Source of the DNA: a virus
Lineage: Duplodnaviria > Caudoviricetes
Strand: one strand, 5' to 3'
IMG/VR virus record: IMGVR_UViG_3300049329_000003
Coordinates: 2,588-66,587 of that record
Length of the DNA stretch: 64,000 nt
The notes beneath the pieces were generated by a model. The model did not search any database, had not been told where the DNA came from, and was given only the letters and a program-made list of their open reading frames with translations. The position numbers and the translations under genes are program-made. This document shows positions 21,426 to 38,033 of the stretch, in pieces (the stretch's first letter is position 1; every line of letters begins with the position of its first letter).

Positions 21426-22736
21426 TTACGCGGCGGCTTCTTCCGCCCTCTTGCGAGCGCGCTGCTTGTTTTCTTCCGGTGCCGCGATAGCCTTGTTTTC
21501 AGGTGGAGCGGGGATGGCCTTTGCGTCAACGTCAATCCAGCCATGCTCACGCGCCATCGATTCGGGAATCTGCGTACCTTTCCCGGCGATCTGCACCGCT
21601 GCGCCGGTAGGAATCCGTCCCGGATTATCAACCGCCTGATAACTCCCATCCCGCATCTTGTAGATCCATCGATCCGAGGTCCACATTTTCATTGCTTCCG
21701 GTACTCCATTCTTGTATCGTGCGGCGGTCTCGATTAGCGCCGCCTCAAGTCTACCAAACTCACTCTCAGGATCTAAAGATGCAGCCAGAGTAAGTACCGC
21801 TTCTGAGCGCTCGCGATAGTAGGCTTCGTCAGTGAGCAGGCGATCGACTTCCATGTACCATGCGGCAATATCGTTGCGGTCAATGAAGATACCTGCGTCT
21901 CCGAAGGCTTCCTTCAATCCCTCAGTCGGATGTGCGATCGTCGGAATTCCCGCACACGCTGCCTCAATGCCGACACGACCATAGGATTCATAGTCAGAAG
22001 GCATTAGCAGTACCTTAGTCTTGCGGAACACTTCGCGAATGTCCGACGTATGTGCCATCCATTCGATGTTACCCGATGCGGCGAATTTCGGATCTGTTCC
22101 CGGCGCAGTGATTACCTGATCGCCGTAGCCGCCTTCAACCGCAAGGAATTCCCTATCAGGCATCTGCTTCGCCAGCGCTTTGAACGTGTTTGCGCCCTTT
22201 GTTGGTGTCGGGTTGACGAGGGTGATCTTGGTACCCGTTTCACAGCGGTAGCGTTCCGGCTCAACTACCGGATGGACCACAATTGACGGAGCCAGCCATT
22301 CGTCCGGCATTTCCTGTCCGGCCCATTGACTACGCTTCGCCGCTAACCAATATGAGTTGTAGACCGCCAGCGCATTCTTGTAAGGCACGCGCGCATCGAC
22401 GCGCCAGTACATGAGTTGAGCGTCGTTGTGGACGAAGTGGACGAGGGGAATCTTCGTTGCCATCGCGAGCGACATGGCTTGGCTGGTAAGATCGAGATGA
22501 GTGACTAACAGATCGGCATCTTTGACGAAGTACTCTAGCCACGATTGCACTCCTCGGCGCGGAGGGCGAACGACCTTGATACCATCGATCTCGTAAGGCG
22601 CAGTCTTACTGCGATCGCAGATGACGTTGACCATGTGGCCGCGATTCACCATCGCGCGAAGGGCAGCGTGGACTGTGGTTTCTGAGCCCGCGTTATGCTC
22701 AGGCGGGAAAAGATGGAAGTAAGCCGTGATTCTCAT
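21426..22736 (-). CDS. GT-B/GT4-family glycosyltransferase with C-terminal capsid-associated extension
   Basis: HLFPPEHNAGSE N-terminus; LLMPSDYESYGRVGIEAACAGIP (E-x7-E) motif; extra ~85-aa tail ending in KAIxAPxENK repeats. Confidence 0.9.
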   Translation of the reverse strand: MRITAYFHLFPPEHNAGSETTVHAALRAMVNRGHMVNVICDRSKTAPYEIDGIKVVRPPRRGVQSWLEYFVKDADLLVTHLDLTSQAMSLAMATKIPLVHFVHNDAQLMYWRVDARVPYKNALAVYNSYWLAAKRSQWAGQEMPDEWLAPSIVVHPVVEPERYRCETGTKITLVNPTPTKGANTFKALAKQMPDREFLAVEGGYGDQVITAPGTDPKFAASGNIEWMAHTSDIREVFRKTKVLLMPSDYESYGRVGIEAACAGIPTIAHPTEGLKEAFGDAGIFIDRNDIAAWYMEVDRLLTDEAYYRERSEAVLTLAASLDPESEFGRLEAALIETAARYKNGVPEAMKMWTSDRWIYKMRDGSYQAVDNPGRIPTGAAVQIAGKGTQIPESMAREHGWIDVDAKAIPAPPENKAIAAPEENKQRARKRAEEAAA

Positions 22737-22815: not shown

Positions 22816-24147
22816 CTAACTATTCTCACCTGCGTGTAGGTCTATTTTGACCACAGCGGGCGGTCGCAACACGCCGAACGCCCATCGGCCTTCATACAGG
22901 ATATCGATGATGTTGCGCTCGAAGTGATCGCGGTTTGAGTCAGTGATGTAGAGGCTTGGATCTTGTCTGTCCCATATTACTAACTGCTTCAAGTCGCCTG
23001 TGTAACCCGTACCTTGCGGGATGACTTCGGACTCAATTACGGGCAAGCCCCAAAGCATCTTCTGACCCAGCGCCATTGGGCCACCAAAGTAAAACCAGCC
23101 GTTGTCGTGGCGGGCAAGATCGATAGTTTCCCAGTCATACGAATTGAGCAGGAATCCCGTCGAGCGAGCACGGCCCCGAATGGTCGCAGCAGTACGCGCC
23201 TTCCGAGTGGTCGTAATCATTCCGCCTGTAGTGTCTTGAGCATCGACCACAAAGTCCTGCGTCGTCAGGTTCGGCGTGTTCTCTAGTCCGGTAAAATGAT
23301 TTGCCCCGCCTGGCCCGGCTACAATCTCCTCTTCCAGCGCCAGGTCGATATCCGTCCGCATGAACGCAGTCATCATCGATTGGAGCTGAGGATAGTCAGC
23401 AAGGATCGTGCGCGTAGCGTTCATGATGACCGCGATAGTCTTCACACCTGTCTGCACGACTTCAAGCGACATTGCCGCTTTCGGCTTGAGCGCGGCATCG
23501 TCAGTCAGCGAAGTCGCCTCGGGAACGATCCGCGCCGCACGAGTAAGCGAGTTGACGCGCACGTACTCGATGAGATTTGAGCCTGTTTGCAGGATCGTGA
23601 TCACGTCGCGAATGGACGGCGTACGCAACGGCAAATCAATCGGCCATGGACCATAGTCGCGTCGCACCAATGAGCCACCCGCCGATCCGGGCACGGTCAT
23701 TACCAGCGTGTCCTTGAATGAAATGTCGCCCAGTCCAATGTCCTTTAGTGAGATCGTTGGCGAGCGCCCGAACTGGTAAGAAGCAGTCATCTCCTTGCCT
23801 TCGGGGGCTACCTGCTCACGCCATGCTTTGAACTCCGGGGCGTTGATGATCAACTCGCCCATCGTTTTTAGCTCCGGCTCACGGTTGGCATCAGGGTTCC
23901 CAAAATCGGGACGACCTACGGGCTGTTTAAGAAAATCGTCGATTGCTTTCAGACGCTTCTTGCGATCCGCGTACTTGTTCTCTTCATCAACCTCGGCAAC
24001 CAACTCCTCGATTCGTTTCCAGCGAGTGTCAAGCTCGGCTTTTTGCTCGGTAGTAGGATCTTCGTCTCCCTGCTTTGCCCAAAAAGCCTGCTCTGCATCT
24101 TTCAGTTCTTTGAGTTCCTGTGTGGCTGTCTTTTTCTCTTCGGCCAT
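22816..24147 (-). CDS. Major capsid protein, HK97 fold
   Basis: 443 aa with N-terminal coiled-coil delta domain; AARIVPEA...KP, LWGLPVIES, FERNIIDILYEGRWAFGVLRPPA. Confidence 0.95.
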   Translation of the reverse strand: MAEEKKTATQELKELKDAEQAFWAKQGDEDPTTEQKAELDTRWKRIEELVAEVDEENKYADRKKRLKAIDDFLKQPVGRPDFGNPDANREPELKTMGELIINAPEFKAWREQVAPEGKEMTASYQFGRSPTISLKDIGLGDISFKDTLVMTVPGSAGGSLVRRDYGPWPIDLPLRTPSIRDVITILQTGSNLIEYVRVNSLTRAARIVPEATSLTDDAALKPKAAMSLEVVQTGVKTIAVIMNATRTILADYPQLQSMMTAFMRTDIDLALEEEIVAGPGGANHFTGLENTPNLTTQDFVVDAQDTTGGMITTTRKARTAATIRGRARSTGFLLNSYDWETIDLARHDNGWFYFGGPMALGQKMLWGLPVIESEVIPQGTGYTGDLKQLVIWDRQDPSLYITDSNRDHFERNIIDILYEGRWAFGVLRPPAVVKIDLHAGENS

Positions 24148-24168: not shown

Positions 24169-25266
24169 CTACGCCAGCGCTCGCATAGCGAGGCTCTGCA
24201 TGCGTAGCGATTGAGTCCTTAGCGTATCCACGGTGATCTCTTTCTCTACTGGCTCCTTCGGCTCGGAAGCAGCAAGAAGCTGGTCTAACGCATCTCTTGC
24301 GGCTACTACCTTCGCGCGATTGGAAGCAGAGAGAATCCGGCCTTCCTTGACTCGGTTCTCGTGGTTGCGCTGCATGTTGTGGGTATGCTTCTCCACTGCG
24401 GATACCACAGCATCGAAGGACTCAAAGGAGCCGGGTACCGATTCACCTTTGAGGTAAAATTCCTTGTCGCTACCGTCGAGGTAGTCTTCAATCTGGCCGA
24501 TCACGATCGGCAGTAACTGTGGACCGTACTCACCAACCAGATCCGTAATCTTTGCCCGCCAGTCGAGCACTGCTCCGGTCACGTTGGAGTCTTTGGCGGT
24601 CTCGGCTATCTTACGGACTACGCGATGAAAGGCTGACTCAACCTCCCAGATAGAGGGAGTCGTTTGGGCCATCTCCTCGGCCAGCATACCTTTGGATTCT
24701 CCATTGCTCGACTTCACAGCGGTCGCCATTGCTAACCTATTCATCGGCGCGGTGACGATTGAGTCTTCAATTACTTCACCCTTTTTCAGGATGCGGATGC
24801 GGTCGAACTTCTGCGCCTTGAGAAGATTGGCTTGCAGGCGGTCAGCCTTGACATAAAGCGGCAACTGCTCCTTGTAATCTTTTGCTTCGATGTAAGACTT
24901 GTCTGAGACTGAATAACCAAACGAGAAGCCAACACGCTTCCCGGCTTTCTTGCGCTCAACCGCCTTAGTGCGAACTGCCTGCGCATCAGACGTAGAGTGG
25001 AACTCAGAATCAACGAAAAAGCCGTGATCATCTTCCTTCGCTACCATCGGATAACCAACCGCTTTATCGAAGTCCCAATCATGTGAGTGAGCCGTGAAGC
25101 CTGCCTCCAGGTATTCGGTTATGCAGTCCTTGAAAAAACCGGGAACGATGAGATCCCCGCCCTCATCAATTTCATTAAAGACAGCTCGATAGCCAGAGAT
25201 GTGACCTGGGCCTTCATCTGTGACTGTCAGGTCTTTAAGGTCGATGAACTTGCGCTCAATTTGCAT
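24169..25266 (-). CDS. Prohead protease (HK97/S78 family)
   Basis: ISGYRAVFNEIDEGGDLI...AHSHDWD...GFSFGY...EDSIVTAPMN; likely start ATG 25266. Confidence 0.92.
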   Translation of the reverse strand: MQIERKFIDLKDLTVTDEGPGHISGYRAVFNEIDEGGDLIVPGFFKDCITEYLEAGFTAHSHDWDFDKAVGYPMVAKEDDHGFFVDSEFHSTSDAQAVRTKAVERKKAGKRVGFSFGYSVSDKSYIEAKDYKEQLPLYVKADRLQANLLKAQKFDRIRILKKGEVIEDSIVTAPMNRLAMATAVKSSNGESKGMLAEEMAQTTPSIWEVESAFHRVVRKIAETAKDSNVTGAVLDWRAKITDLVGEYGPQLLPIVIGQIEDYLDGSDKEFYLKGESVPGSFESFDAVVSAVEKHTHNMQRNHENRVKEGRILSASNRAKVVAARDALDQLLAASEPKEPVEKEITVDTLRTQSLRMQSLAMRALA

Positions 25267-25274
25267 GGTTGAAC

Positions 25275-25330
25275 CCAAAAAGAAAGCCCGCCAATGATCC
25301 TCTTCCGAGAACCACGGGCGGGCAGGTCGT
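25275..25330 (-). terminator. Large-loop terminator-like hairpin before the protease gene
   Basis: Minus strand ACCTGCCCGCC-(loop)-GGCGGGC-TTTCTTTTT, same arms as the 13513-13560 element. Confidence 0.65.
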
Positions 25331-25592: not shown

Positions 25593-25808
25593 CTACTGGA
25601 CGGTTTCAACTTCGATGGTTCCATGCAGGATTGAGGTACGGCAGTATATCATCCGAAACTCGGTGGTGGCGGAATTTACGGCTCGACAACAGTGAAGGTG
25701 GCTGACTGCTTCGGTGATCGGTTCAGCGGTAATAATCTCCCAGCCGCGTAGGTCGTCCAACGATTCCGCGGTCCAGTATTCGTGACCATCAACGCAATCA
25801 ACTCTCAT
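25593..25808 (-). CDS. Hypothetical protein
   Basis: Coupled small ORF in the island. Confidence 0.5.
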   Translation of the reverse strand: MRVDCVDGHEYWTAESLDDLRGWEIITAEPITEAVSHLHCCRAVNSATTEFRMIYCRTSILHGTIEVETVQ

Positions 25809-26083
25809 TCACGTAACCACTTCTGCGCCAACTCCCGCATCTTTGCCGGACAATAGGCTCGCGGCATCAGGTTCCCGCAGTACTCGCAGAGCATGAGGTT
25901 GTAGCTGATGTTGAACACTCGTCCACTGAGAAATCCGCGTCCATCGTCAGGATGTTGTCCACGCCCGCTGTCGGTCTGCCGCGTCATGTGACAAGCCAGT
26001 TGCGATTCAGGCAGGTCATTGGCCCGCACGAGTTCAAGAATTGCGGTGTGTTCGTGCTTTGGGAGGGGCTCAAGGGCGTTCAT
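25805..26083 (-). CDS. Hypothetical protein with CxxC
   Basis: LCEYCG; ATGA coupling. Confidence 0.6.
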   Translation of the reverse strand: MNALEPLPKHEHTAILELVRANDLPESQLACHMTRQTDSGRGQHPDDGRGFLSGRVFNISYNLMLCEYCGNLMPRAYCPAKMRELAQKWLRE

Positions 26084-26355
26084 GCGTAAATCGGCTTAAC
26101 CTCATTTAGCGGTATTTCGTCATCAATCACTATTGGAATTCCCCACAGCGTTTCCGATATTGCGTCATTTAATTTCAGAAGATTGTCAGCGCCTAACTGC
26201 TTTTCGAGTAAGCGAAGCGTCATCATGCTCATTTCATAACGCTTAATAGCGGGACCATACTTCGCTCGCTGTGACTGGAGTAGCTTGTAGGCTTCTTCAA
26301 TTTGGTTCATTTCGTAATTCGCTATTCTTTTGGTGTCTTCGGCGACGGCATCCAA
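26080..26355 (-). CDS. Hypothetical protein
   Basis: 91 aa; LWGIPIVID motif. Confidence 0.6.
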   Translation of the reverse strand: MDAVAEDTKRIANYEMNQIEEAYKLLQSQRAKYGPAIKRYEMSMMTLRLLEKQLGADNLLKLNDAISETLWGIPIVIDDEIPLNEVKPIYA

Positions 26356-26534
26356 TAGCGGACATCTACACCTCGACGCATTCCCTCACGAGCATCAACG
26401 TAACAAAATCCCGCATCGCTGAAGTATTCACCGCTAATCGCGTTGGACGAATAGTTGGGATCGTACTCGGCAATCAACACGGGTTGGCCGCTTTCTGGTA
26501 ATCTATCCCTGACGCTGATCCACTCGTTGCTCAT
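26322..26534 (-). CDS. DUF551-like small phage protein
   Basis: EWISVRDRLPESGQPVLI...VRYWMPSPKTP. Confidence 0.8.
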   Translation of the reverse strand: MSNEWISVRDRLPESGQPVLIAEYDPNYSSNAISGEYFSDAGFCYVDAREGMRRGVDVRYWMPSPKTPKE

Positions 26535-27292
26535 TTCCAGTCAATCACCTTCCAGTCAGCACCGTAAATATCCTCTGCCGTAATGTGCGTATATGCCTTC
26601 CCAAACCACGGTCTCGGCACCACCACTCGCTTGTCTGGTGCATCACTCAGCACTGCGGCCATTGCGCTGTAACTGCTGTTAGCAACAATGTAATGTCTGC
26701 ACCGTTTAAGTAGCTTGAAATCTTCCAGATAATCCCGCCCTTCGGAATACTCCACGCCTGACCCGAACATCTGCTTCGCCCCGACAATGTCATCACTGAA
26801 CACAAGAAACTTTGCGCCGGGAAATTCAGCCATTGCGGATCGATAGTAGCCCATCGTCAACCGGGGGTGATATCCATCTCCGTCAGTGTAATCTCCCGCC
26901 CGCCAGTGGATGGCTACGCAGTCGTTCTGTGGTGGTTCGTCTTTCATGCGCAAGTACCATCGGATTTCGTCCAGCGCATGCGAGAAATACTTCTCGGATT
27001 GAAAATGCCCCTTAAGACTTACACTCTCAGTCAGATCAACGTCGTGAAATCCCCAATCGACCCAGCGCTCGGGTAATGGTGGACCGGAATAAAGCGGCAA
27101 CGGATTGGCAAAATGCTCGTAAACGTTGACGCCTTCGCTTGAGCCAAACCGATCCCGATGATCGTGATTGATCCACGGCGGGAAGGCGAAGTCTGCATTG
27201 TTGCGACGGGCTACGCCAATCGTCCCGGCCACCTGGTAGGCGCCGTTGCAAAATCGGCCCATTAGCCCGAGGTTGGCAAATGTCACTATCAT
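26531..27292 (-). CDS. Alpha-1,2-fucosyltransferase (GT11)
   Basis: [43 protein letters not shown] motifs. Confidence 0.92.
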
Positions 27293-28257
27293 AATTCGCG
27301 CTGCTTATTCCGCATCGCAGGCAACTCGCTTGACCTTGATCCAGACTCTCCCACTCGTGCGCGATACCAGTCGAAGGTTGAACGAAGCCCGTCATAGAGC
27401 GAGATTTTAGCACGCCAGCCGAGGAATCTGATGCGAGAACTGTCTACCAGCTTGCGAGGCGGACCATCGGGCTTGGTTGAATCAAACAAAATCTCCCCAC
27501 GATAGCCGACTACTTCAGCAACCATGTGGGCCAGATCGCGGATCGTTACTTCTTGCCCTGAGCCTACGTTAATCGGTTCCGCGTCGTTATATTCCGCCAT
27601 CAGGGTAATAAGCGCGTCTGCAAGATCGTCAACGTGCAGGAATTCGCGCTTCGCCCTCCCCGATCCCCACACCGTAACCGACCTGTCGCCGTTCAACGCG
27701 GCGCGGTAGAGCCTCGACATCAGCGACGGAATCACATGCGCGTCAACTGAATCAAAGTGATCGTTGGGGCCGTAGAGGTTTGTAGGCATGGCGGCGATCG
27801 CGTTGAAGCCGTACTGCTTGCGATAGGCTTGGCACAGCTTCAACCCGGCGATCTTAGCAATCGCGTAGTACTCGTTCGTCGGCTCCAGTGGGCCGGTGAG
27901 TAGCGCGTCTGCTCGCATGGGTTGTTGCGCGTCACGCGGGTAGATGCAGGATGAGCCGAGGAATAGTAGCTTCTGCGTAGCTCCATAACGATATGCAGCC
28001 TCAATAACATTCGCTTGTATGAAAAGGTTGTCATAGATAAAGTTAGCGGGATAAGTCGAGTTCGCGTGAATACCTCCGACTTTAGCCGCCGCAAGAAAAA
28101 CCTGCCGAGGTTGATGAAGAGAGAAGTAGAAGTCTACAGCGCTCTGATCGGTTAGATCCAACTCTTGGCGAGGGGCGGTCAACGCATCGGGAATCCGCCG
28201 CAGTAACGCGCTACCTACGAGTCCGGTGTGACCGGCAATGTAAGTGGTGCTCATCAA
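27289..28257 (-). CDS. fcl: GDP-L-fucose synthase
   Basis: [64 protein letters not shown]. Confidence 0.96.
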
Positions 28258-28718
28258 CTTTCCCTTGCCTCAACCTCACTATAATCATGCAAATGGATGA
28301 CGGGTGGTCGATGCGGATGAGGACGCAAACCCGCTTGACACGCCTGCCACTCAAACTCACTGTCGAGCCGAGACCAATGATGGCCGATACGAGACCATAC
28401 GTCAGGTAAGCGCCGGATTAGCCCAGCAGAGAACTTAGTACAGCCAAATGAGTGATAGATACCAATACCACGCTGATCGTAAGAATTTGCGCACCATAAG
28501 CCGGGACATTGCCATAACTCCTCCAGTGCCCCCGGCCACGGGAGAATGTCATGCTCAACCAGAATGAACGTCTCACCCTTTTGCCATAGATCGTTAAGCA
28601 GATTCCAATAGGCATCAGACGAGGCACTAACATCGACATAGGTTGGGGCGTGACCGTAACGTGAAAGTAGTTGCGGGAGCAGCGGATGCAGTTGAACGTG
28701 GGGGATAATGATATTCAC
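28254..28718 (-). CDS. Small GT-A-like glycosyltransferase/nucleotide-sugar protein
   Basis: [19 protein letters not shown] and SFGCTKF patterns; location in the glyco cluster. Confidence 0.55.
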
Positions 28719-28724
28719 TGAGGC

Positions 28725-28904
28725 CTAGCGATAACGCTCGCACTCCTTGCATTCAAAGCTCAGTCGGTAAAAGGCTAGGGCTAGATGGTAAATACAGATC
28801 TTGGTCCAGAATTCCGCTTCTGGCATGAGATAGAAGAACGCATGACGCTCCGCTGCTTTCGCAAACATGGCGGCGTAATACATGTGGTATTTTGAATCCG
28901 TCAT
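28725..28904 (-). CDS. 59-aa hypothetical protein
   Basis: Read by eye: MTDSKYHMYY...FECKECERYR. Confidence 0.45.
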   Translation of the reverse strand: MTDSKYHMYYAAMFAKAAERHAFFYLMPEAEFWTKICIYHLALAFYRLSFECKECERYR

Positions 28905-28910
28905 GTTCTC

Positions 28911-29246
28911 TTACTTGAATATATCTCTCCCTAGCCTGCCCAGTTGAGTCCGTGTCTCAGACAAAAGGACCTTCACTTCACCCGTATCAGTATGCTTCCT
29001 AATAGTAAGCGGGTACTGAATTTGGCGCGAACTTTTCACCGTAGCAATGAGTCTATTCTTGCTAAGCAGCCGAGAGCGAGTAGCGGAATAGCGCGTGATC
29101 ATATTGCGCGGGCTGTCAGCGTAAAAGTTATGCGGTGCGGCGGACATCTCAACCGTGATATCGCTTTTTACAAGCCGCCGCTTCCGCCCAAGTATCACTG
29201 TCACCGGCGCTTTGATTTCGTATGTACCAACAAACGCATATTTCAT
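28911..29246 (-). CDS. Basic hypothetical protein
   Basis: Likely start ATG 29246 (ATGA overlap with the methyltransferase stop). Confidence 0.5.
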   Translation of the reverse strand: MKYAFVGTYEIKAPVTVILGRKRRLVKSDITVEMSAAPHNFYADSPRNMITRYSATRSRLLSKNRLIATVKSSRQIQYPLTIRKHTDTGEVKVLLSETRTQLGRLGRDIFK

Positions 29247-29902
29247 TGCAACCAACTCCGATTGAAATACAGTTCCCACTCCAGTAACGGATGTGGCTCG
29301 CATTCAGGAAACAGGTGTCCATATTCCTGTTTAACTAGAATGAGATTTCCGGTGTGACACAGCACGAAATATCCACGCTCCAGCGCCGCAACTGTCATGG
29401 TCCAATACCCTACGCCACCGTCTGAGTTAACGCGCTCACTTGGAGGCTCAATGCTGCTGTCGATTTCTACGATAACGATCTTAGGCCGCGCCTTCATACC
29501 ACAGAAGATTGCATAGTCGCCCCCATCGGTATCGATGCTGAGCAAATCGCACTTGTCATCAACGAAGGCGTTCACGTTGCGGCCGTCTACGCGGGAGCAC
29601 TGGTGTCGAACGTGAGGATTATCAGCCCAATTCTGTTTTGACTGAAGGTAGAGATTATGATCGGCTTCGACAAACAAACCGGACCATCCCTGCTCAATAA
29701 GGTATCGCGTGTTTGAGAGCCACAGACCCTCGTTGCCGCCGATCTCTACTGCGTGGCCCAAGACCGCCACTTTGGACTCCCCGTTGTAGAGATAACCGTC
29801 ATGCTGATTAGCGGTGATGCGCTTCCAGCCTTCTTGAATGATTAAATCCTCTCCGTTTTGCGAGTGGACGTTCCCGGCATACCGTTTTACAAAATCAAGC
29901 AT
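29243..29902 (-). CDS. FkbM-like SAM-dependent (sugar) methyltransferase
   Basis: NVHSQNGED, VEIGGNEGLWLSNT, GWSGLFVEAD, DLLSIDTDG, RPKIVIVE. Confidence 0.85.
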   Translation of the reverse strand: MLDFVKRYAGNVHSQNGEDLIIQEGWKRITANQHDGYLYNGESKVAVLGHAVEIGGNEGLWLSNTRYLIEQGWSGLFVEADHNLYLQSKQNWADNPHVRHQCSRVDGRNVNAFVDDKCDLLSIDTDGGDYAIFCGMKARPKIVIVEIDSSIEPPSERVNSDGGVGYWTMTVAALERGYFVLCHTGNLILVKQEYGHLFPECEPHPLLEWELYFNRSWLQ

Positions 29903-30632
29903 GGCAGCCCACTTTCCGGCGCTTGGTCTCGTTTATCTTCTTGCGCGTTTCCGAAGATATGCCGCGCTTTTTCGCGGCTTGCCGCATCCGTTCTCTCACC
30001 TCATCTGTGTACACGATTTTGGCCTGTTGCGCCCTTGCCGCCCTGATTCGATCGAGTGTTTCATCTGAGTATATACCCGTTTTCCCTTTATTCCACGGGA
30101 TGCGTCCCTTATTCTTCGCCGCGACTTTCGCTGTATGCGCAGGGGATTGAGGTCCGCGTTTTCTTCCACGCCAGAACGCTCCAGACCTCTCGGCATGTAG
30201 AGGCCCATGCTTCTTACCCGTGTTCGCTTCGCTAATCTTCTTTCGTGTTTCTTGAGATACGGGATGGCCCATTCGCTTCTCTCGAAATTTCTGCTTCGTC
30301 TCCTCACTTGTCCTGCCCTTGGCTCCCGCCTCTCGTGTGTTAAGTAGCCGACACCCGCGTTTACGGTATGAATCCATGTAGATCTGCTCGTAATGGTCAA
30401 GACGATGCTGCTCAATGTTTTGAGGAAGCCAGTGGGTCAACTGGAACTCATGGGCCAGCACTCCGTACTTAAAGAAAGAGTTGTCCAGCTTTGGCTGCGT
30501 CCCCTTTCTTTTGTCGTACCGATAGAAACGAAAGCGCGCGTAAACATGGCGGCTCTGGCCCACGTAAATACGACCTGACGGAGATGTAATTGTATAAATG
30601 CCGCAAACGCGCTTAGGATGGTATCTAGCCAC
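29895..30632 (-). CDS. Free-standing GIY-YIG homing endonuclease with NUMOD3-type repeats
   Basis: CGIYTITSPSGRIYVGQS; repeated SEETKQK/SQETRKKISEA/PWNKGK motifs. Confidence 0.92.
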   Translation of the reverse strand: MARYHPKRVCGIYTITSPSGRIYVGQSRHVYARFRFYRYDKRKGTQPKLDNSFFKYGVLAHEFQLTHWLPQNIEQHRLDHYEQIYMDSYRKRGCRLLNTREAGAKGRTSEETKQKFREKRMGHPVSQETRKKISEANTGKKHGPLHAERSGAFWRGRKRGPQSPAHTAKVAAKNKGRIPWNKGKTGIYSDETLDRIRAARAQQAKIVYTDEVRERMRQAAKKRGISSETRKKINETKRRKVGCHA

Positions 30633-30656
30633 TGATGTGAACCTCTGACATAGGTA

Positions 30657-30752
30657 TCACTCTTTGGTAAGAGTCGCTCGAATGCTGATAAACACTCGGG
30701 CGACTCGCATTATACCGTAGTTCTTTGCGTATCTGTGTAAGAAGGTAAGCAT
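30657..30752 (-). pseudogene. Relic 5' end of the methyltransferase gene (MLTFLHRYAKN...)
   Basis: First 11 codons match the methyltransferase N-terminus MLDFVKRYAGN at 7 of 11 residues, then run into the endonuclease promoter. Confidence 0.6.
30671..30714 (-). promoter_or_regulatory. TATAAT -10 box followed by a 36-nt hairpin upstream of the endonuclease
   Basis: TATAAT 30714-30709; GAGTCGC-CCGAGTG-tttatcag-CATTCGA-GCGACTC. Confidence 0.6.
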
Positions 30753-30971
30753 TTATTCGGCCTTGCAGAAGGGGCACGGTTCGTCTCCAACGAAACATTC
30801 AACCGCGTGATTAACCGGCTCGTGCTCTTTCATGAAACGCGTTAGTTGTTGTTTTCCTTCCTCAGTTGGATCTACAACCTTTATTACCCGACACGTCAGA
30901 CAGTTGGCCCACCAATTCACTTTCGCCTCCAGCCCGATCGTCGCCATGTATTTATGTAAGAAGCTAAGCAT
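30753..30971 (-). CDS. 72-aa Cys-containing protein beginning MLSFLHKY
   Basis: ORF track; first 24 nt are 21/24 identical to 30729-30752. Confidence 0.65.
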   Translation of the reverse strand: MLSFLHKYMATIGLEAKVNWWANCLTCRVIKVVDPTEEGKQQLTRFMKEHEPVNHAVECFVGDEPCPFCKAE

Positions 30972-30974
30972 GTC

Positions 30975-31367
30975 TTATAGGCCAAGTAGGGCCATGCGAA
31001 TCGGGCCATTCGCCTTAAGATCGTCAACAACAGTCTCAATAACGCGACGTCGAAACGCACCATCCGATGACCCATCTTCACCTTCAATTCCACCGTGGAA
31101 AAGCGCCTTCAATTGTATGTAGGCATCCCACTGTGCCGGACCCATCTGATGAACCGTAGCGCCTGCCTGATCAAAACGTTTTGCCGCTTGTTTTATCTGC
31201 TTTAGCTGCTCATACTCTTCTCGGCTCACGGTTAGGGTTTCGGTGTTTTCACTGCGGTACAGGCCGGCCAGAAAACCGTGATGCGCCAGCATCCGACCGC
31301 GGCCCGTTTCGTCCGGGTCAAACTGCCTGTTCCACCACTCTGTAAAGCGTGGATCTTCGTCACTCAT
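30975..31367 (-). CDS. Hypothetical protein
   Basis: 130 aa coupled ORF. Confidence 0.6.
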   Translation of the reverse strand: MSDEDPRFTEWWNRQFDPDETGRGRMLAHHGFLAGLYRSENTETLTVSREEYEQLKQIKQAAKRFDQAGATVHQMGPAQWDAYIQLKALFHGGIEGEDGSSDGAFRRRVIETVVDDLKANGPIRMALLGL

Positions 31368-32185
31368 GCCGCGTTACTCCATTCATGGTTACGTTTTCTA
31401 TGATGTGAAAAGAGGATCGGGTACGTGTCTCCCGCGTACTCCGGTAACTTCTCATAAACAAATTCCGGCGAACTGCCCCGATTGTATACCGCGGGCCAGT
31501 AATGAAGTTTCAAACCCTCTCTGTATGCGAGCGTGGTCAGTATGCTTTGATCGTGTCGGTTCTCTCTGAACTCAGGATGATTCGGACTTCGGCTGGGTGA
31601 ATCATCAATCAACCTTCCGCCTTCAAAGAGACACCACTTCAACCACTCAGCGACGAACTTACGCGAGTAGTCAGAGACACGAAAGAAGATTACTGAGGCT
31701 TGGCATTGCTTGCCGAAACGTTCCCACGTAACGGCCATGTCTGAGTGGTATTCCAAATTGGGTTCCCAGAACTTCGACGGCCAAATCTCTTGAACCACAT
31801 CCCGTTTACACCACGCGTAATGCGGCCAGTTATTACCGAATAGAAAGATGTCCTGATCCATTCGATCGATTATGTGGGAGACGGGAGCGATGAACTCAAT
31901 GCCGGCATCCGCATAGCACACCACGTCACCGTTCCGCACGTTCCGCACAAAGCCAGCTACGCCAGTTAGCCGATCAATTAAATAAGGCTTCCATGACCAT
32001 AGACCATAGCCTTTCCGGTTAGCAAAAATTTGTGGATGCTCTTCCATCATGGGTCGGATATCCCACTCATCGCAAGTATGAATCTGGTTTGCGCCAATCC
32101 CGCCTTTCAGAATTGCGCTCTCAACGCACAACTCCCGCGCTCGGCTCATGCTTTCATCTGAGAATGTAACGAGATGGACTGTCAC
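31364..32185 (-). CDS. Putative glycosyltransferase (GT-A-like)
   Basis: KGYGLWSWKPYLI, VVCYADAG (DxG/DxD-like), ENRHDQSILT motifs typical of nucleotide-sugar transferases in phage glyco clusters. Confidence 0.7.
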   Translation of the reverse strand: MTVHLVTFSDESMSRARELCVESAILKGGIGANQIHTCDEWDIRPMMEEHPQIFANRKGYGLWSWKPYLIDRLTGVAGFVRNVRNGDVVCYADAGIEFIAPVSHIIDRMDQDIFLFGNNWPHYAWCKRDVVQEIWPSKFWEPNLEYHSDMAVTWERFGKQCQASVIFFRVSDYSRKFVAEWLKWCLFEGGRLIDDSPSRSPNHPEFRENRHDQSILTTLAYREGLKLHYWPAVYNRGSSPEFVYEKLPEYAGDTYPILFSHHRKRNHEWSNAA

Positions 32186-32289
32186 TTATTGTCTCTTTTT
32201 CAATGCGGCTCTCAACGCCAACGCTCCGCTACAGTCAGGGCACCACGGATCGGCCCAACAGGACGGACATTTGCAGCAGGAGAATCATT

Positions 32290-32481
32290 TCAATCACCAC
32301 TTACAGGCATACGAATTGACAGCCACAAGTCATCTGGCATAAGACCTAAGTATCCCTCCGGCAGGTTCTTGCCCGTAATGTATTCACTGGAATCATCCAC
32401 AATGCCAACGTAAAAACCCTGCCAGCGATAGACCACAATCAAGCCGGACGGTTTAACGTCAGAAACCTTTTCCCATTTCAT
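32290..32481 (-). CDS. Hypothetical protein
   Basis: 63 aa coupled ORF. Confidence 0.5.
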   Translation of the reverse strand: MKWEKVSDVKPSGLIVVYRWQGFYVGIVDDSSEYITGKNLPEGYLGLMPDDLWLSIRMPVSGD

Positions 32482-33092
32482 CTCAGCCTCTTATCCGATT
32501 CTTGAAAGATTTCCGTGTAGTCATCAACATAGCCACCTTGCCAGATGCTGCTCACACGCGGCCTCTGGTACGCAACCATCGGCGCGACGCAGTACGCGTT
32601 CAACTCCCGTAGTCTCGTGGACAGCCAGTTATCAAACATGATTTCAGAGAACGCAGGCTGCTTGGCTAAAAGCTCGTAAACGCATTTACGATTATACCCG
32701 ATCGCATGTGTGGTCCAGGCGGCCTTAACGCGCCACAGGTGCTCGCTGTAACGCTCGGGCTCAGGCTCGCCATTGTTCCAGCAAACCAGATTCGCGCCTA
32801 GATAAGCAATATCCCAATCTTCAGGTAACTCGCCTAACGCTTGCTCCAGATGACTTAGATCGCGAAACAGGCAATCGTCTTCCAAGTGCAGTAACGTCTC
32901 CGCGCCTGACAGGTAGAATTCGCACAGGATCTCTCGCTCTGACTTGTTGAACGATTGATGCGGGCCAATGTCGGGGAGGGATTGGAACTTCTCGACCTCG
33001 AGGCCGACGCGCTGGAATTCCAGCCGCGCCTGCGCCCACTCGCTGTCGAGAGTTGTCAGGCAAACGCGGCTTTGGAAAAACGACCAGTTCAT
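32478..33092 (-). CDS. GT25-like glycosyltransferase
   Basis: LLHLEDDC, LPEDWDIAYLG, WTTHAIGY, DNWL motifs. Confidence 0.85.
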   Translation of the reverse strand: MNWSFFQSRVCLTTLDSEWAQARLEFQRVGLEVEKFQSLPDIGPHQSFNKSEREILCEFYLSGAETLLHLEDDCLFRDLSHLEQALGELPEDWDIAYLGANLVCWNNGEPEPERYSEHLWRVKAAWTTHAIGYNRKCVYELLAKQPAFSEIMFDNWLSTRLRELNAYCVAPMVAYQRPRVSSIWQGGYVDDYTEIFQESDKRLR

Positions 33093-33358
33093 TTGGCTTC
33101 AATCTTGCGGAATACTACCTCGCCTGCTTCGTTTATTCCGTCAATATCAACTTTGCCATCGATAACAAGTGAGATCAACGCTTGGTCAATGCGAGCCGCA
33201 TGTAGCATGTCGAGAACCTTTTGGGTTACAAGCGCACATTTCTCTTCCGTTACTGGCTCCATTCCGCGAACCACGCTAGCGATAATTAGCAGGCACTCGC
33301 GATCTGTTACAGTTTCCGGCTGCACGTAGGTCCATGAACCGACGGTACATGCGCTCAT
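33089..33358 (-). CDS. Hypothetical protein
   Basis: 89 aa, ATGA coupled. Confidence 0.55.
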   Translation of the reverse strand: MSACTVGSWTYVQPETVTDRECLLIIASVVRGMEPVTEEKCALVTQKVLDMLHAARIDQALISLVIDGKVDIDGINEAGEVVFRKIEAK

Positions 33359-33561
33359 TTATTTCGCTCCTTGCTGCTGCCGTTGACAATCGGCTTCTCA
33401 AACAGCCAGCGCATCAACTTTATCATCGTCACGGCGTCCATGACCTCGCCGCGCTCAATACGTGAGATCGTGCCATGCGAAACGCCCACTTCCTGCGCCA
33501 GTTCGCGGATACCGACATCACGCTTCTGCCGCCAGCTTCGTAAGACCTCGCCAATCTTCAT
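33355..33561 (-). CDS. XRE/Cro-family HTH regulator, first gene of the glyco island, leaderless
   Basis: LRSWRQKRDVGIRELAQEVGVSHGTISRIERGE. Confidence 0.9.
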   Translation of the reverse strand: MKIGEVLRSWRQKRDVGIRELAQEVGVSHGTISRIERGEVMDAVTMIKLMRWLFEKPIVNGSSKERNK

Positions 33562-33641
33562 GCGGCTAACTTAGCATATACTGTCTAAGCTGTCAAACAT
33601 TTTCTCTTGCGCTGCCAATGGGGATTTGCTAACATGCAGCC
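33562..33641. promoter_or_regulatory. Divergent sigma70 promoter pair, both leaderless
   Basis: Minus: TTGACA-17-TAAGTT-6-ATG; plus: TTGCGC-17-(TGc)TAACAT-6-ATG. Confidence 0.75.
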
Positions 33642-33833
33642 ATGCGGCTTCTGACAGACGAACAGCTAAGGCGAGTAGATGAGATTATTACAGACGAAAT
33701 TAATCTGGAAATTGATTACGTCTTCAACGGGGAAGACTCACTGCCGGAAATCGACGGAGACGAAACGTTACGTAATGCGGCGCGTGCTGTGAGAGCATAT
33801 TTGGAAACACTGGAAACGGAGATAGGTAAATGA
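33642..33833 (+). CDS. Acidic hypothetical protein (moron, opposite strand to the late operon)
   Basis: 63 aa directly after the plus-strand promoter. Confidence 0.65.
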   Translation: MRLLTDEQLRRVDEIITDEINLEIDYVFNGEDSLPEIDGDETLRNAARAVRAYLETLETEIGK

Positions 33834-33900
33834 CAAACGCTGAGTTGTACTACCAGCTACGCAAGGGCTGGGTGAGACGGTTGCTGGATTGGATCGCGGG

Positions 33901-34191
33901 ATGAGCTTTGCGCCTAAGGTTGGTGATATTTACCTCGATCCGCACAGCGGTAAGGTCTATCGGTACTATTCCGTCTATCAAGGCGACAATGGATCGTTTG
34001 GCAGTAGCGCCGAGCCTTTGGGATTCATTGCGGACCAGCGCCCCACGTTGATCGATCTACTCTACGCTTTCTACTGCCGCAGTCGAGGCGGAATCATCTG
34101 GCGCTATCAGCTAATCTACTCTCATTACCAGTCCGAAAAAGACCGAGCAATGCGACCGCCGCAAACTCTCGTCAAAGACATCATTGATTAA
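33901..34191 (+). CDS. Hypothetical protein (moron)
   Basis: MSFAPKVGDIYLDP...; likely ATG 33901. Confidence 0.55.
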   Translation: MSFAPKVGDIYLDPHSGKVYRYYSVYQGDNGSFGSSAEPLGFIADQRPTLIDLLYAFYCRSRGGIIWRYQLIYSHYQSEKDRAMRPPQTLVKDIID

Positions 34192-35071
34192 TCCAGACGT
34201 GAAAACACCTGCAATAGTCTCCACCTAAGCAGTCAGGGTTTGGCGCGGGCTGTAGATCATCTTCACTATTAGCAGTTTGACCGTCTTCCGCGGCGCAGGG
34301 CTCGCAAACGTTCTGATCGAGCAAGGCTGAATACTCCACTCGCTCCCATTCATCAGATCTCGCTTCTGCTTCATCACCGCGCCCGATGTTGATGACTTTG
34401 TTCGCTAACCCTCGTGCGGCGCGATCGATGTAAGTCACTGAGCCGGCGTTAATCTCGTTTGTAACGGCATTAATGAGTCCGTCTCCGGTCTGGCCTAGCA
34501 GCGCGTGTCGTGCAGCAGCGTCAATAAGCCGAGACTGCACGTCGTTGGTAACGCGGCTGGTCGTGAGGTCAACTAAGTCTTCAAGTTCGTCAAAATCACC
34601 ATCATCAATAACCGCGGCCTTCGTATTCAATTCAGCAGCAACCAGCATCCGGCCGTGACGGTGGACTTTGACGAGCTTATCACTTAGATCGATCCTTAGC
34701 TCGCCCGGCGCTTGCAGTACCAACTCGTGATAATGCGCAGGTCTCAGCTTTTTGATTCGGCTCAATCCATCGGTGATGAGATCTGCGCGCAGTCGTAGCA
34801 ACACAGTCCCGATAGATTCCTTAGCCGACTCCTGCGCGTTGTGGATTCCTTTGACGGCGATCTTCTCGTGCTCTTTTGGCTCGCGTGAGAGGGTGAGTCC
34901 TTCCCATTCGACGCCCTTACGCTCAATGTGGTTCAGTCCAAGTGAGAGGTAGAATGCTTCGGCTTTATGCTCACCATGCGTGTGAATCTGCTTATCCCAA
35001 AACTCAGCCAGCCGCGCCGCCGTAACCACGTCACGCTTGAGCTGGTTTAACTTCTCAGCGAGAATCGGCAT
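34181..35071 (-). CDS. Head morphogenesis protein (SPP1 gp7/Mu F-like)
   Basis: YSALLDQNVCEPC...PNPDCLGGDYCRC; follows the portal; likely start 35071. Confidence 0.9.
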   Translation of the reverse strand: MPILAEKLNQLKRDVVTAARLAEFWDKQIHTHGEHKAEAFYLSLGLNHIERKGVEWEGLTLSREPKEHEKIAVKGIHNAQESAKESIGTVLLRLRADLITDGLSRIKKLRPAHYHELVLQAPGELRIDLSDKLVKVHRHGRMLVAAELNTKAAVIDDGDFDELEDLVDLTTSRVTNDVQSRLIDAAARHALLGQTGDGLINAVTNEINAGSVTYIDRAARGLANKVINIGRGDEAEARSDEWERVEYSALLDQNVCEPCAAEDGQTANSEDDLQPAPNPDCLGGDYCRCFHVWINQ

Positions 35072-36545
35072 TCCGCATGAACCTCTCAGCCTGTTCGTTG
35101 AGATAGGCAATCTGACGGTCGATATCGGCTATCTTCGCAGCTTCCTGAATCGGATCCACCGGCGCAGTCATCGGTGTCTCCTCAGGCGGCTTCGTCGCCA
35201 TCTCAATCAACCGTTCAGGCGACATCGGAGACGCTATTCCCGGTACCATGCGGATGTCTCCGAGAGGTGCGCCGAGAGTCTTCTTACCGATTGCGGTGTA
35301 GAATTGGTCAATCGTGCTTGCGCCTGATCGAAAGACTTCCGATTCGCGCTTAACCAAGGCATCCTTGTCTTCTTCCAGTACTCGAACGTTCGTTGTATCA
35401 AACCAAAATTGATCATCTTCGGTTAAGTCCGAGAATTCCGGCTTTAGCTGCCAGTTGATCTCTTCCTCCCAAACGCTTTGGATGGGAATGATCACTTCCT
35501 CGTAACCCTGTTGCCGAGCCTGCTCACTAGACGCGTAGCTCGTGCCGTTTTGCAGCCCCACAAGCAATCCTAATGTTGGCGCGGGGATTTGCAATACCGC
35601 CGCAACGCGAGACTCGGGAATAAGCCTAAGTGCCGATAAGTCTAACTCCTGTGGGCTGAATCCTACCTTCTCAAAATCAATCGGCTCGCTCAGCACGATT
35701 GGCTCACCAGCCCGATCGCCAGTTGTCTTCCGCATCCAGCCTTCCTTCATCGCCGCGGCTTTCGTTGCATCCACCCGCACTTCCTTGTCCTTGGGCGAGA
35801 TCACGGGCACCTGAATGCCCATGTTGCGCATGATCGCTGCCGTAAATTGCGCCATTTTGTCGTCGCCGTAGAGTTCCTTGACGAGTGGGGCGAATGGTTG
35901 GCGAGTGCGTCGATCCTCGCCTAAAGGACCGCGTTTAAGGTGCAGCACATCAGCCGCCGGCCATAGCACCGGAGCCTTACCAGGGACATCAAACTGATAG
36001 TGCGAGAGGAATGGATCGAGCGATGTTTCACGTGGAACCTCGGGTGCGCCTCCGTCCCCCGGCCAGCGCGGGCGGATTAGGTAGTGCGGTATATGCCACA
36101 GTTCGATTAGTTGCCCGCCTACGTCGCGTACCTTCTTGAACCTGACTCCACCATCGATCCACCAGTCGATTGAGGCTGCCTGCGAGTAGTTGGCCCAGAT
36201 GTGGTGTTTGTTTGGGCGACGGATGAGTTGGGCGAGGGCGTGATTTGCGTCGATCTGCGTGTCGCCGTCCTTGTTGATGCGTCGGATGACGGGCTTGGCT
36301 TCAGGAAGTCGTGTCCCGGTGTAATTGAACACGCAGGCGACAAGCGAGTGGCTGTCGAGATTTCCTACTTCACGCTTATAATCAACGGTTGCAGGTGGAT
36401 TCCAATGATTCCAGCGGAAGCGATAGTCGGGGAAGTTATCGTACGTGTTAGCTTGGGCGAAGTCTGGAGCTGGAGAGGCAGCTTTCTGCTCGGTTAAAGC
36501 ACGATAAGCTTTGGAGATACGGTTAATGAGACTGAATTCAGCCAT
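35055..36545 (-). CDS. Portal protein (HK97-like)
   Basis: LIRRPNKHH, LWHIPHYLIRP, VLHLK, IAAVLQIP-type and IIPIQSVWEEEIN motifs; follows terL. Confidence 0.93.
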   Translation of the reverse strand: MAEFSLINRISKAYRALTEQKAASPAPDFAQANTYDNFPDYRFRWNHWNPPATVDYKREVGNLDSHSLVACVFNYTGTRLPEAKPVIRRINKDGDTQIDANHALAQLIRRPNKHHIWANYSQAASIDWWIDGGVRFKKVRDVGGQLIELWHIPHYLIRPRWPGDGGAPEVPRETSLDPFLSHYQFDVPGKAPVLWPAADVLHLKRGPLGEDRRTRQPFAPLVKELYGDDKMAQFTAAIMRNMGIQVPVISPKDKEVRVDATKAAAMKEGWMRKTTGDRAGEPIVLSEPIDFEKVGFSPQELDLSALRLIPESRVAAVLQIPAPTLGLLVGLQNGTSYASSEQARQQGYEEVIIPIQSVWEEEINWQLKPEFSDLTEDDQFWFDTTNVRVLEEDKDALVKRESEVFRSGASTIDQFYTAIGKKTLGAPLGDIRMVPGIASPMSPERLIEMATKPPEETPMTAPVDPIQEAAKIADIDRQIAYLNEQAERFMRNADSR

Positions 36546-38033
36546 TTAGAACATTTCTAGTTCGCGAACGTTAGCCAGCTTAGAAAACGCCCCGCTTGCC
36601 GCATCTACCTGATCGTCGTTATCACCATGCGGAAATGCGGTTAACTCATTGCGAAACGCGATATTCCAATCTGCTTTGAGTACTCTTACGTTTTGACCTT
36701 CACACTGGCTGGCAAAGGGATCGGCGCGAGTCTCCTTGTCGTTTTTCGCCATCTCAGTATGAACGCTAAAGCCCGCCATGTCACGAATAATGTTCGCAAT
36801 GACCTCTACGGCCAAGCCCGGCACTTTCTCAATCCAAGTTGGAATGACGCCATACTTATTGAGATCTGACTGCGCCGTGTCCTTCATCTTTTGGTTCCGA
36901 TCTCTTGGAGACCACTGACCGCGCTGGATGTCCTCGACGTAGAAGAGACCGCCGTGCTCAGCCATGAGACAGCCGACTGAGTAATCCGCCTTCGTACTAT
37001 CACTGCCACCTAGATCCCAATAACGGACACGGTTCGCGCCAACAGGAACCACGCTAACCTCGTGCGCGAGATCTGAAAGCTTGAACAGCCCACCTTCCCT
37101 TGGTGCTGGTCGCTGGCGATAGAGCGCGTTCCAATAGTAAGGGCCAATGCGCTGCTGAATCTTTCTCAGCTTCTCAATCGGATACCGCTCGGGACATAAG
37201 GCTTCCCCAACCGCACGATCATCAGGCTCAAGCGTGCAAGTGGGCGGGATCTCTATCGACTTCTCTTCCTTGATCGCCTCCAGACAGACAATATGCCAGT
37301 GCTCCGGCTCCTCGCCTGTCTCTTGAGCTAAAAGCCAGCCAGGGAGGTCTGATTGATTCCAGCGAGTAGCTTGGAGGACTATCGCCCCATTTGGCTCCTC
37401 GCGCGTGTAAAACGTTGACGGATACCAGTCTTGGTGATCTCGCTGGACGGCCTCGGATAATGCTTCTTTAGCATTCTTAATCGGGTCGTCAATGATGCCG
37501 AGGTGAAATCCCTTGCCAGTGATAGGGCCACCAACACCCGCAGACCATAGCCCGCCGCCTTGATCTGTCTCCCAATGCTTTACCGCTCGAGCTGATTCGC
37601 GCATTTCGCTGCCGCTGCTAAGGTAATTATCGCGGGAGTTGCGTGAGAGGGTGAAAGCTAATTCCGCTGCGTAGGAATTGATACCTGCCCAACGTTCCGG
37701 AAACAGGTTGAGGTAGTAAGCTGAGAATAAGCGTGAGAGTAGCTCCGACTTGCCATGCCGAGGAGGAGCGAAGATCATCACGCGATTTAGCTCACCTTGA
37801 GCCACGCGGATGAGCACCTTGGCTATCTTGATGCAGTGGGGATACCACTTGAAACGAGGGTTAGCGGTTGAGACGAAAGATTGGAAGCCTTCAAGGCTCG
37901 GTTGGCGGGATAGACGGTGCTGCGGCCCTTGCCCGCTCAATGGCTTCGAGAAGGCGAACTGATTTGTCTGCCATGACTCCGTGGAGAACGGCAAGCTTAT
38001 CGGCTGATTGTTGTCGTAAGTATTCGTCCTCAC
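36546..38033 (-). CDS. terL: Terminase large subunit
   Basis: Walker A RVMIFAPPRHGKS, Walker B GIIDDP, nuclease YWDLG...HGDNDDQVDA; start codon uncertain. Confidence 0.96.
   Translation of the reverse strand: MRTNTYDNNQPISLPFSTESWQTNQFAFSKPLSGQGPQHRLSRQPSLEGFQSFVSTANPRFKWYPHCIKIAKVLIRVAQGELNRVMIFAPPRHGKSELLSRLFSAYYLNLFPERWAGINSYAAELAFTLSRNSRDNYLSSGSEMRESARAVKHWETDQGGGLWSAGVGGPITGKGFHLGIIDDPIKNAKEALSEAVQRDHQDWYPSTFYTREEPNGAIVLQATRWNQSDLPGWLLAQETGEEPEHWHIVCLEAIKEEKSIEIPPTCTLEPDDRAVGEALCPERYPIEKLRKIQQRIGPYYWNALYRQRPAPREGGLFKLSDLAHEVSVVPVGANRVRYWDLGGSDSTKADYSVGCLMAEHGGLFYVEDIQRGQWSPRDRNQKMKDTAQSDLNKYGVIPTWIEKVPGLAVEVIANIIRDMAGFSVHTEMAKNDKETRADPFASQCEGQNVRVLKADWNIAFRNELTAFPHGDNDDQVDAASGAFSKLANVRELEMF

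Follow-up and report, generated by a model that had tools for sequence, protein, structure and literature searches.

A soluble glycosylation cassette in the head module of an uncultured soil phage is a probable virion decoration system

We analyzed a 64,000-nucleotide stretch of a tailed-phage genome (hereafter the window), which is positions 2,588 to 66,587 of IMG/VR virus record IMGVR_UViG_3300049329_000003. That genome is complete at 66,587 bp and has direct terminal repeats, and the window is nearly all of it. An island of glycan genes at 25593-33561 (minus strand) lies between the gene for a MuF-like minor head protein and the gene for the prohead protease. We consider it probable, with some reserve, that this island and a glycosyltransferase (GT) gene next to the capsid gene form a cassette for O-glycosylation of the virion, in which the C termini of the major capsid and tail tube proteins would carry a short methylated glycan with L-fucose (or L-galactose). 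A model-made first-pass annotation of the same DNA had offered cytoplasmic decoration of virion proteins as one of two targets, and from the position of the genes, their synteny, and the protein tails described below, this is the best reading.

The virion arm, on the minus strand, stretches leftward from about 38 kb to 1 kb of the window. It runs from the large terminase (36546-38033) and portal (35055-36545) through the MuF-like protein (34181-35110; weak phrog_595 and phrog_6577 matches, conserved 5′ of the island in relatives) to the island. After the island come the prohead serine protease of the S78 type (24169-25278; PF04586, E = 1.7e-9), the HK97-type major capsid protein (22816-24147; PF05065, E = 1.6e-27), and, directly after the capsid gene, a GT4-type gene (21426-22736). 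Connector, fiber-like, and tail genes make up the rest of the arm. The leftward gene chain drawn by the first-pass annotation was thus recovered at the same coordinates on the minus strand, and the gene content supports its claim of a soluble set of donor, transferase, and methyltransferase enzymes within the head module. For comparison, we used 26 related IMG/VR loci that were fetched with the protease (42 to 98% protease identity). Per-gene counts take in only the relatives that cover the site concerned.

The sugar donor gene of the island encodes a GDP-L-fucose synthase (Fcl/GMER; 27289-28257, minus strand). Its match to NF047922 (E = 4e-136) scored 453 bits, narrowly missing the equivalog cutoff of 500 bits. 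Full-length similarity to solved enzymes was strong, with E = 1.8e-108 to 7ll6 and E = 1.7e-96 to the Escherichia coli enzyme 1bws. Both the catalytic YAIAK motif (YxxxK, residue 131) and the dinucleotide/NADPH-binding motif GHTGLVG (GxxGxxG, residue 9) are present. Gmd, which makes the substrate of this enzyme and whose absence the first-pass annotation had already noted, was absent from the complete 66.6-kb genome. Most relatives have the Fcl gene, and five are without it. In two loci, L024 (8213-9259) and L025 (5893-6876), a gene for GDP-mannose 3,5-epimerase (GME) takes the place of Fcl (E = 5e-108 to 2c59, the Arabidopsis GME). GME yields GDP-L-galactose, which is GDP-L-fucose with a hydroxyl at position 6. 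The sequence of these two genes points to GDP-L-galactose as the donor in place of GDP-L-fucose, and thus what varies appears to be the supply of L-sugar, with the GT11 step described next retained.

The enzyme that would use this donor is a GT11-family alpha-1,2-fucosyltransferase-like protein (26531-27292, minus strand). It matched PF01531 with 45.1 bits (cutoff, 23.9), although the match spans only the C-terminal half of the model, and it matched phrog_2644 over its full length (E = 3e-37). Three motifs, HWRAGDY (HxRxGDY), FSDD, and NSSYS, are intact, and the gene was found in 25 of 25 relatives covering the site. Degenerate catalytic motifs, which the first-pass annotation had named as a sign against its idea, were seen in neither Fcl nor GT11. 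The GT4-type protein, which has a GT-B fold assignment, matched PF00534 with 54.1 bits (cutoff, 26.4) and phrog_26352 with E = 5e-77. Its E-x7-E motif (E250 and E258) is invariant in 11 aligned sequences. At its C terminus is a domain of about 90 amino acids (window 21426-21700) that finishes in tandem P-x-ENK-A repeats; it is conserved in the 11 aligned sequences, and every relative has it, to identities as low as 46%, but the homolog in Streptomyces phage TurkishDelight lacks it.

Methylation would fall to an FkbM-type S-adenosylmethionine-dependent methyltransferase (29243-29902, minus strand), which matched PF05050 with 28.9 bits (cutoff, 22.7) and partial coverage of the model. It shows 49 to 77% identity in 20 relatives and, from its sequence, is probably a sugar O-methyltransferase. 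For Fcl, GT11, the GT4 adjoining the capsid gene, and the FkbM-like enzyme, the first-pass family calls all held in these profile searches.

The other candidate enzymes belong to less readily classified families. The first-pass annotation had called a 204-amino-acid protein (32478-33092, minus strand) GT25-like, and this stood at the level of fold. An AlphaFold2 (AF2) model (predicted local distance difference test [pLDDT], 72; predicted template modeling score, 0.73) has a GT-A fold, and the best Foldseek matches were structures of a GT25-type beta-1,4-galactosyltransferase (8xlz) and human COLGALT1, with E = 2e-6 and template modeling scores of 0.52 to 0.59 for the top entries 8xlz and 9evj. 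A64R, a capsid glycosyltransferase of chlorovirus PBCV-1, was also among the matches. At the level of sequence the call did not stand. Pfam GT25 (PF01755) gave no match even at E ≤ 10, and a profile of the protein found COLGALT1 in the PDB only at E of about 0.5. The protein has a conserved E-D-D motif and occurs in 17 of 17 relatives covering the site with 60 to 90% identity.

Two further proteins had been described as GT-A-like. Their genes exist, encoding 273 and 154 amino acids, while the GT-A assignment is a lead. The 273-residue protein (31364-32185, minus strand; motifs RGxGxWxWKP, YxDAG, HRHDQ, and HHRxR) belongs to a large unclassified family with 4762 representatives at E ≤ 0.001. 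Distant members are fused to FkbM or GT2 domains, and its language-model neighbors were GT34/DUF1647/TOD1. In 11 bacterial genomes, its homologs are within polysaccharide clusters, where the neighboring genes included GT2 (10 cases), GDP_Man_Dehyd (GDP-mannose dehydratase/epimerase; 6), ABC transporter (5), GT1 (4), FkbM (3), and GT25 (2), along with TylF. It is probably a glycan-building enzyme. No Pfam or PDB relative was found, since PDB profile searches with alignments of 17, 59, and 80 rows gave only marginal and probably spurious matches, and an AF2 model from the 17-row alignment failed (pLDDT, 41). The 154-residue protein (28254-28718, minus strand) has an invariant E-H-D motif and occurs in 10 relatives, always with the fcl gene adjacent. 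It had no match in Pfam or the PDB. Its language-model neighbor in the Atlas was the Anp1 family (0.95), and as a lead it is possibly a compact GT-A enzyme. Comparison of the three unclassified island proteins with one another by hhalign found nothing.

The first-pass annotation had suggested a synteny survey, and across the 26 loci the order of the core enzymes within the head module is kept. Every locus that covers the region has the same order, namely portal, MuF, GT25-like, 273-residue protein, FkbM, GT11, protease, capsid, and GT4. The parts that vary among relatives are the XRE-type regulator gene, an endonuclease gene, the donor gene, a DUF551 gene, and most small open reading frames (ORFs). 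Identities of the core enzymes equal or exceed that of the capsid protein across the relatives; for example, in L019 they are 46% for the major capsid protein, 53% for GT11, and 62% for the GT25-like protein. L030 is more distant and is on a contig binned with a Terrimicrobiaceae metagenome-assembled genome (MAG); in it, the GT25-like, 273-residue, GT11, and GT4 genes are contiguous. The GT4 encoded next to the capsid gene is thereby tied to the pathway of the island enzymes.

We then compared the candidate acceptors with those of glycosylated phages. Virions of the mycobacteriophages Che8, Corndog, and Myrna are glycosylated by phage-encoded GTs (PMC12363180 and PMC13445384), and the glycans have been placed at the C termini of both capsid and tail tube subunits (PMC12619734). 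In our phage, the capsid protein ends in AGENS (family consensus, AGANS), with G440, N442, and S443 unchanged across 14 sequences whose identity falls as low as 45%. The putative major tail (tube) protein (12869-13495, minus strand), assigned by synteny from its position directly 5′ of the chaperone pair and tape measure gene, ends in NAGAQS. Across 18 relatives, with identities as low as 56%, these residues never change while their neighbors do. The two proteins therefore share the ending Gly-x-(Asn/Gln)-Ser. Endings of the form G-x(0-2)-S occur in 4 of the 95 ORFs in the window and, within the structural arm, only in the capsid and putative tail tube proteins.

Similar endings are found in the proven cases. 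The Che8 capsid and tail tube proteins end in TGS and DGS, and those of Corndog end in VGS and GDS. Capsid and tail tube both end in Ser in all four of the GT-carrying phages or families compared (Che8, Corndog, TurkishDelight, and the present family). As a rough control, we took ten cultured phages whose capsid protein is homologous and whose head module has no annotated GT, and among these the pair of Ser endings occurred in one, mycobacteriophage Charlie (capsid, TSGS; major tail, QPAS), which has no GT annotated anywhere in its genome. Either the motif is unspecific or the proteins of Charlie are modified by host enzymes. This comparison is support for the C-terminal Ser as acceptor and not proof of it.

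Separately, we counted Ser-ended proteins over the window. They made up 6 of 21 in the structural arm (1119-24147, minus strand) and 5 of 74 among the other ORFs (Fisher P = 0.013). In addition to the capsid and putative tail tube proteins, the arm has such proteins at 3073-3849, 3854-4255, 7922-8335, and 12402-12869.

From these data, we propose a model for the cassette. Donor supply would be late and cytoplasmic, with the phage Fcl turning GDP-4-keto-6-deoxymannose, made by the Gmd of the host, into GDP-L-fucose. The chain would be built by the soluble GT4-type, GT25-like, and 273-residue enzymes, possibly together with the 154-residue protein, and GT11 would add L-fucose. The FkbM-type enzyme would O-methylate the glycan. 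Attachment to the serine of the Gly-x-(Asn/Gln)-Ser tail on the major capsid and tail tube proteins would give a glycan coat on head and tail. Such a coat may protect the particle against proteases, keep it from adsorbing to debris, or shield it from binding factors of the host or environment. The setting of the genes agrees with this model, as the island is on the same strand as the portal/MuF and protease/capsid genes between which it lies, in an order kept in 26 loci.

The closest architectural counterpart is the cassette of Corndog (cluster O; Freeman et al. 2023, as cited in PMC12363180, PMC12619734, and PMC13445384). There, the methyltransferase gp35 and the GTs gp36 to gp38 are encoded directly 5′ of the capsid gene, are soluble, and lie inside the head module, and the C termini of its capsid and tail tube proteins both have Gly-(x)-Ser, as in the present phage. 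Unlike Corndog, the present cassette has Fcl (GME in two relatives), GT11, and a GT4 gene 3′ of the capsid gene, and it is known from its genes alone. Phage-encoded virion glycosylation, from genes in or beside the head module, is established in Che8, Corndog, and Myrna, and the novelty that the first-pass annotation saw in fucosylated virions of a diderm-infecting siphovirus was overstated. To our knowledge, tailed-phage particles proven to be glycosylated come from only a few mycobacteriophages. What is new here is a cassette built on the known plan from non-homologous enzymes, and one that brings its own supply of activated sugar.

Several points weigh against virion decoration. A protein O-glycosyltransferase that would start the chain on serine was not identified. 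In BLASTP searches of Corndog gp35 to gp38 against all island proteins, the best match had E = 0.6 or weaker, which is no detectable homology; since the island enzymes are non-homologous to those of Che8 and Corndog, the parallel is one of architecture only. The tail tube protein is assigned by synteny only, the terminal Ser is not specific, as Charlie has it with no annotated GT, the control sample is small, and the tail motif was defined post hoc. A terminator-like hairpin lies 3′ of the MuF gene, and together with the XRE-led promoter described below it implies that the timing of the island may differ from that of the head genes. Finally, the GT11, GT25, FkbM, and 273-residue families are normally found in bacterial surface-polysaccharide clusters, as in the 11 homolog neighborhoods above, and the closest homologs of GT11 and the 273-residue protein in cultured phages are in cyanomyophage clusters that are usually read as host cell-wall or surface modification genes (PMC12801897).

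These last two points speak for a different reading, in which the enzymes would remodel a surface glycan of the host during infection (lipopolysaccharide core, O unit, extracellular polysaccharide, or capsule). Their substrates would be lipid-linked intermediates, met at the cytoplasmic face and exported by a host flippase, and the result could mask receptors and block adsorption of progeny or competitors. Soluble GT11 and GT25 enzymes normally act on lipid-linked glycans that are flipped by the host, and soluble GTs can do without a flippase of their own. The absence of membrane functions noted by the first-pass annotation was borne out by profile searches of the complete genome, which found no Wzx-type flippase (PF01943), GtrA (PF04138), or Bac_transf initiating phosphotransferase (PF02397), and by a transmembrane check, which found no transmembrane-like segment in any island protein and no multipass membrane protein anywhere in the window. 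The first-pass annotation had taken this absence as its argument against serotype conversion. As the host flips such glycans, the lack of a flippase alone is a weak argument, yet conversion is still disfavored, and the stronger argument is that neither a tyrosine nor a serine recombinase (PF00589, PF00239) was matched anywhere in the complete genome. With no integrase, there would be no long-lived lysogen to profit. With no integrase, GtrA, or membrane GT, the phage differs from the serotype-converting prophages that carry Gtr-type or other O-antigen modification genes. Remodeling of the host surface during infection also has to face that the genes are in the head operon of every relative and are as conserved as virion genes, that neither an initiating phosphotransferase nor any membrane component is encoded, and that the conserved C-terminal tags of capsid and tail tube would be left unexplained. 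We therefore regard it as unlikely, although it is the main rival of virion decoration.

Should the glycan be on the virion, it might still be on other parts. Candidates are the proteins at 15692-17308 and 17309-19456 and a 125-residue protein encoded after GT4, which contain 25 to 27% Ser plus Thr and are in the structural arm; the 125-residue gene is directly 3′ of GT4 and is conserved in close relatives. No conserved motif links these candidates to the GT genes, however, and the 125-residue protein is absent from more distant relatives that retain all of the GT genes, while the tails of the capsid and tail tube proteins resemble those of phages with proven glycosylation. We think these acceptors improbable. 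Less probable still is the second target of the first-pass annotation, phage DNA, with sugars added as a base hypermodification against restriction. The island proteins are cytoplasmic, and phage GTs do glycosylate hydroxymethylated bases (work cited in PMC12619734). But the complete genome has no hydroxymethylase of the thymidylate synthase family (PF00303), and its DNA modification genes are in the replication arm, away from an island that is in the head module. These genes encode a Mom-family protein (52111-52665, plus strand; PF25680, E = 1.5e-14) and an N6/N4 DNA methylase (54358-55380, plus strand), and the phage probably modifies its own DNA by routes unrelated to the sugar island. GT11 and FkbM enzymes, for their part, have glycans and not bases as substrates.

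The proteins rich in Ser and Thr deserve a separate remark. The 538- and 715-residue proteins (15692-17308 and 17309-19456, minus strand) and the 125-residue protein (21037-21414, minus strand) have their genes between those for head and tail and might be extra glycan acceptors or head fibers.

Outside the mycobacteriophages, three further systems resemble the cassette proposed here for capsid and tail tube decoration. In chlorovirus PBCV-1, glycosylation of the major capsid protein relies on cytoplasmic GTs, a sugar methyltransferase, and enzymes of GDP-L-fucose synthesis that the virus itself encodes (PMC5408694, PMC9614988). Its A064R protein is a GT-GT-methyltransferase, the virus encodes GMD and GMER, and the A64R GT domain is the one found among the fold matches of our 204-residue protein. 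In contrast to our phage, PBCV-1 is a giant virus of eukaryotes; its glycans are N-linked, it has a jelly-roll capsid and its own Gmd, and the two systems have no relationship at the level of sequence. The closest homologs in cultured phages are those of cyanomyophages S-SM2, S-8S55, P-TIM68, and S-SCSM2R (30 to 35% identity for GT11 and 25 to 28% for the 273-residue protein), where GT11 and 273-residue-family genes are grouped with epimerase and other GT genes. These are large myovirus genomes with clusters outside the head module, and a logic of C-terminal tags is not reported there. Finally, gp20 of Streptomyces phage TurkishDelight is a homolog of the GT4-type protein (33% identity, E = 1e-42); its gene lies between those for the capsid and major tail proteins, which both end in Ser. 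It differs in being a tandem duplication of the GT domain without the ENK-repeat domain, has no fucose or methylation genes nearby, and is likewise known from genes alone.

A bolder version of the model is speculative and quite unlikely in our judgment. Here, GT4 would dock on the capsid through its ENK-repeat domain and glycosylate the assembling shell, and the swap of donor genes (Fcl, GME, or neither) would diversify the terminal L-sugar as a form of antigenic variation in a widespread soil lineage of non-actinobacteriophages. We ran a complex prediction for the mature capsid protein with GT4 residues 338 to 436. The median score was 0.60 (runs of 0.00, 0.60, and 0.63; best control, 0.00), with a partner pLDDT of at least 51 and a run-to-run agreement of at least 0% of contacts. 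Among 80 solved complexes, 58 reach the mark for this prediction, as do 2 of 110 mismatches, and scores at or below 0.60 include only 7 of the 80 complexes and both mismatches. The outcome was rated “weak support,” and we did not use it as evidence.

If the proposed virion decoration is true, glycan coats on virions would be a recurrent and independently evolved phage trait and not a mycobacterial curiosity. The C-terminal Gly-x-Ser tail would then be a simple sequence marker for further cases, and the Fcl/GME swap would be a natural experiment on variation of the coat.

The island is headed by a gene for a 68-residue XRE-type helix-turn-helix regulator (33355-33561, minus strand; HTH_31, PF13560, E = 2e-9), as the first-pass annotation had said. 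The XRE, 89-residue, GT25-like, and 63-residue genes form a translationally coupled run of four with ATGA overlaps, XRE being first. Upstream of XRE, the sequence reads TTGACA, 17 nt, TG-n-TAAGTT, 6 nt, and ATG, and a Shine-Dalgarno sequence is absent. This is a putative sigma-70-type promoter (33568-33596, minus strand) that was read from the sequence and falls under the threshold of a consensus scan. It would put the start of the transcript at the A of the XRE ATG. With this spacing and no Shine-Dalgarno sequence, the leaderless XRE gene of the first-pass annotation is plausible, and the claim stands to that extent. Its description of XRE as the island's own regulator was not supported. A homolog was found in 7 of 15 relatives covering the interval; missing from most of them, XRE is an add-on and not part of the core of the system. 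The gene may equally serve the divergent small ORFs on the plus strand.

One such ORF of 24 codons (33830-33904, plus strand), between the MuF and XRE genes, shows 50 to 92% identity in nine relatives and is coupled by ATGA to a 63-codon ORF at 33642-33833. A 100-codon plus-strand ORF (33889-34191) that overlaps the 24-codon ORF is not conserved in relatives and is probably no gene.

Two genes of the island had been overlooked in the first-pass annotation. One encodes a GIY-YIG/NUMOD3 homing endonuclease (29895-30632, minus strand; PF07460, E = 1e-8; PF01541, E = 2.5e-4; phrog_314, E = 3.5e-16), a mobile insert that overlaps the start of the methyltransferase gene. Homologs are at differing island positions in four relatives (L002, L005, L006, and L026), which makes the cassette a recurrent homing target. 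Upstream of it is a Cys-rich 72-residue ORF (30753-30971, minus strand) that was not found in relatives; its start (MLSFLHKY) is a near copy of the methyltransferase N terminus (MLDFVKRY). The other overlooked gene encodes a DUF551 protein (26322-26534, minus strand; PF04448, E = 4e-9) and is a variable moron present in 3 relatives.

The remaining ORFs of the island are small and on the minus strand. Three are variable, namely those of 89 residues (33089-33358; no family match, among relatives only in L003), 63 residues (32290-32481; no match, only in L020), and 130 residues (30975-31367; no significant match, in L001 and L013). A 59-residue ORF (28725-28904) is conserved in 9 relatives. At the downstream end (25593-26355) are three ORFs of 91, 92, and 71 residues, of which the Cys-containing one of 92 residues is conserved in 18 relatives.

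With regard to the wider genome, megablast of the region against cultured phages gave no match, and no tRNA genes of the phage were found. Proteins of the lysis region had no PHROG matches, and a clear spanin or lipobox was also not found there. The nearest MAG-binned relatives are in Cyclobacteriaceae and Terrimicrobiaceae bins, which may be misbinned viral contigs. Pieces of the island DNA were found in soil metagenome runs of several independent studies, with no RNA run listed among them, and one island protein had more than 2000 close homologs. The source is an uncultured soil phage, and its family is abundant.

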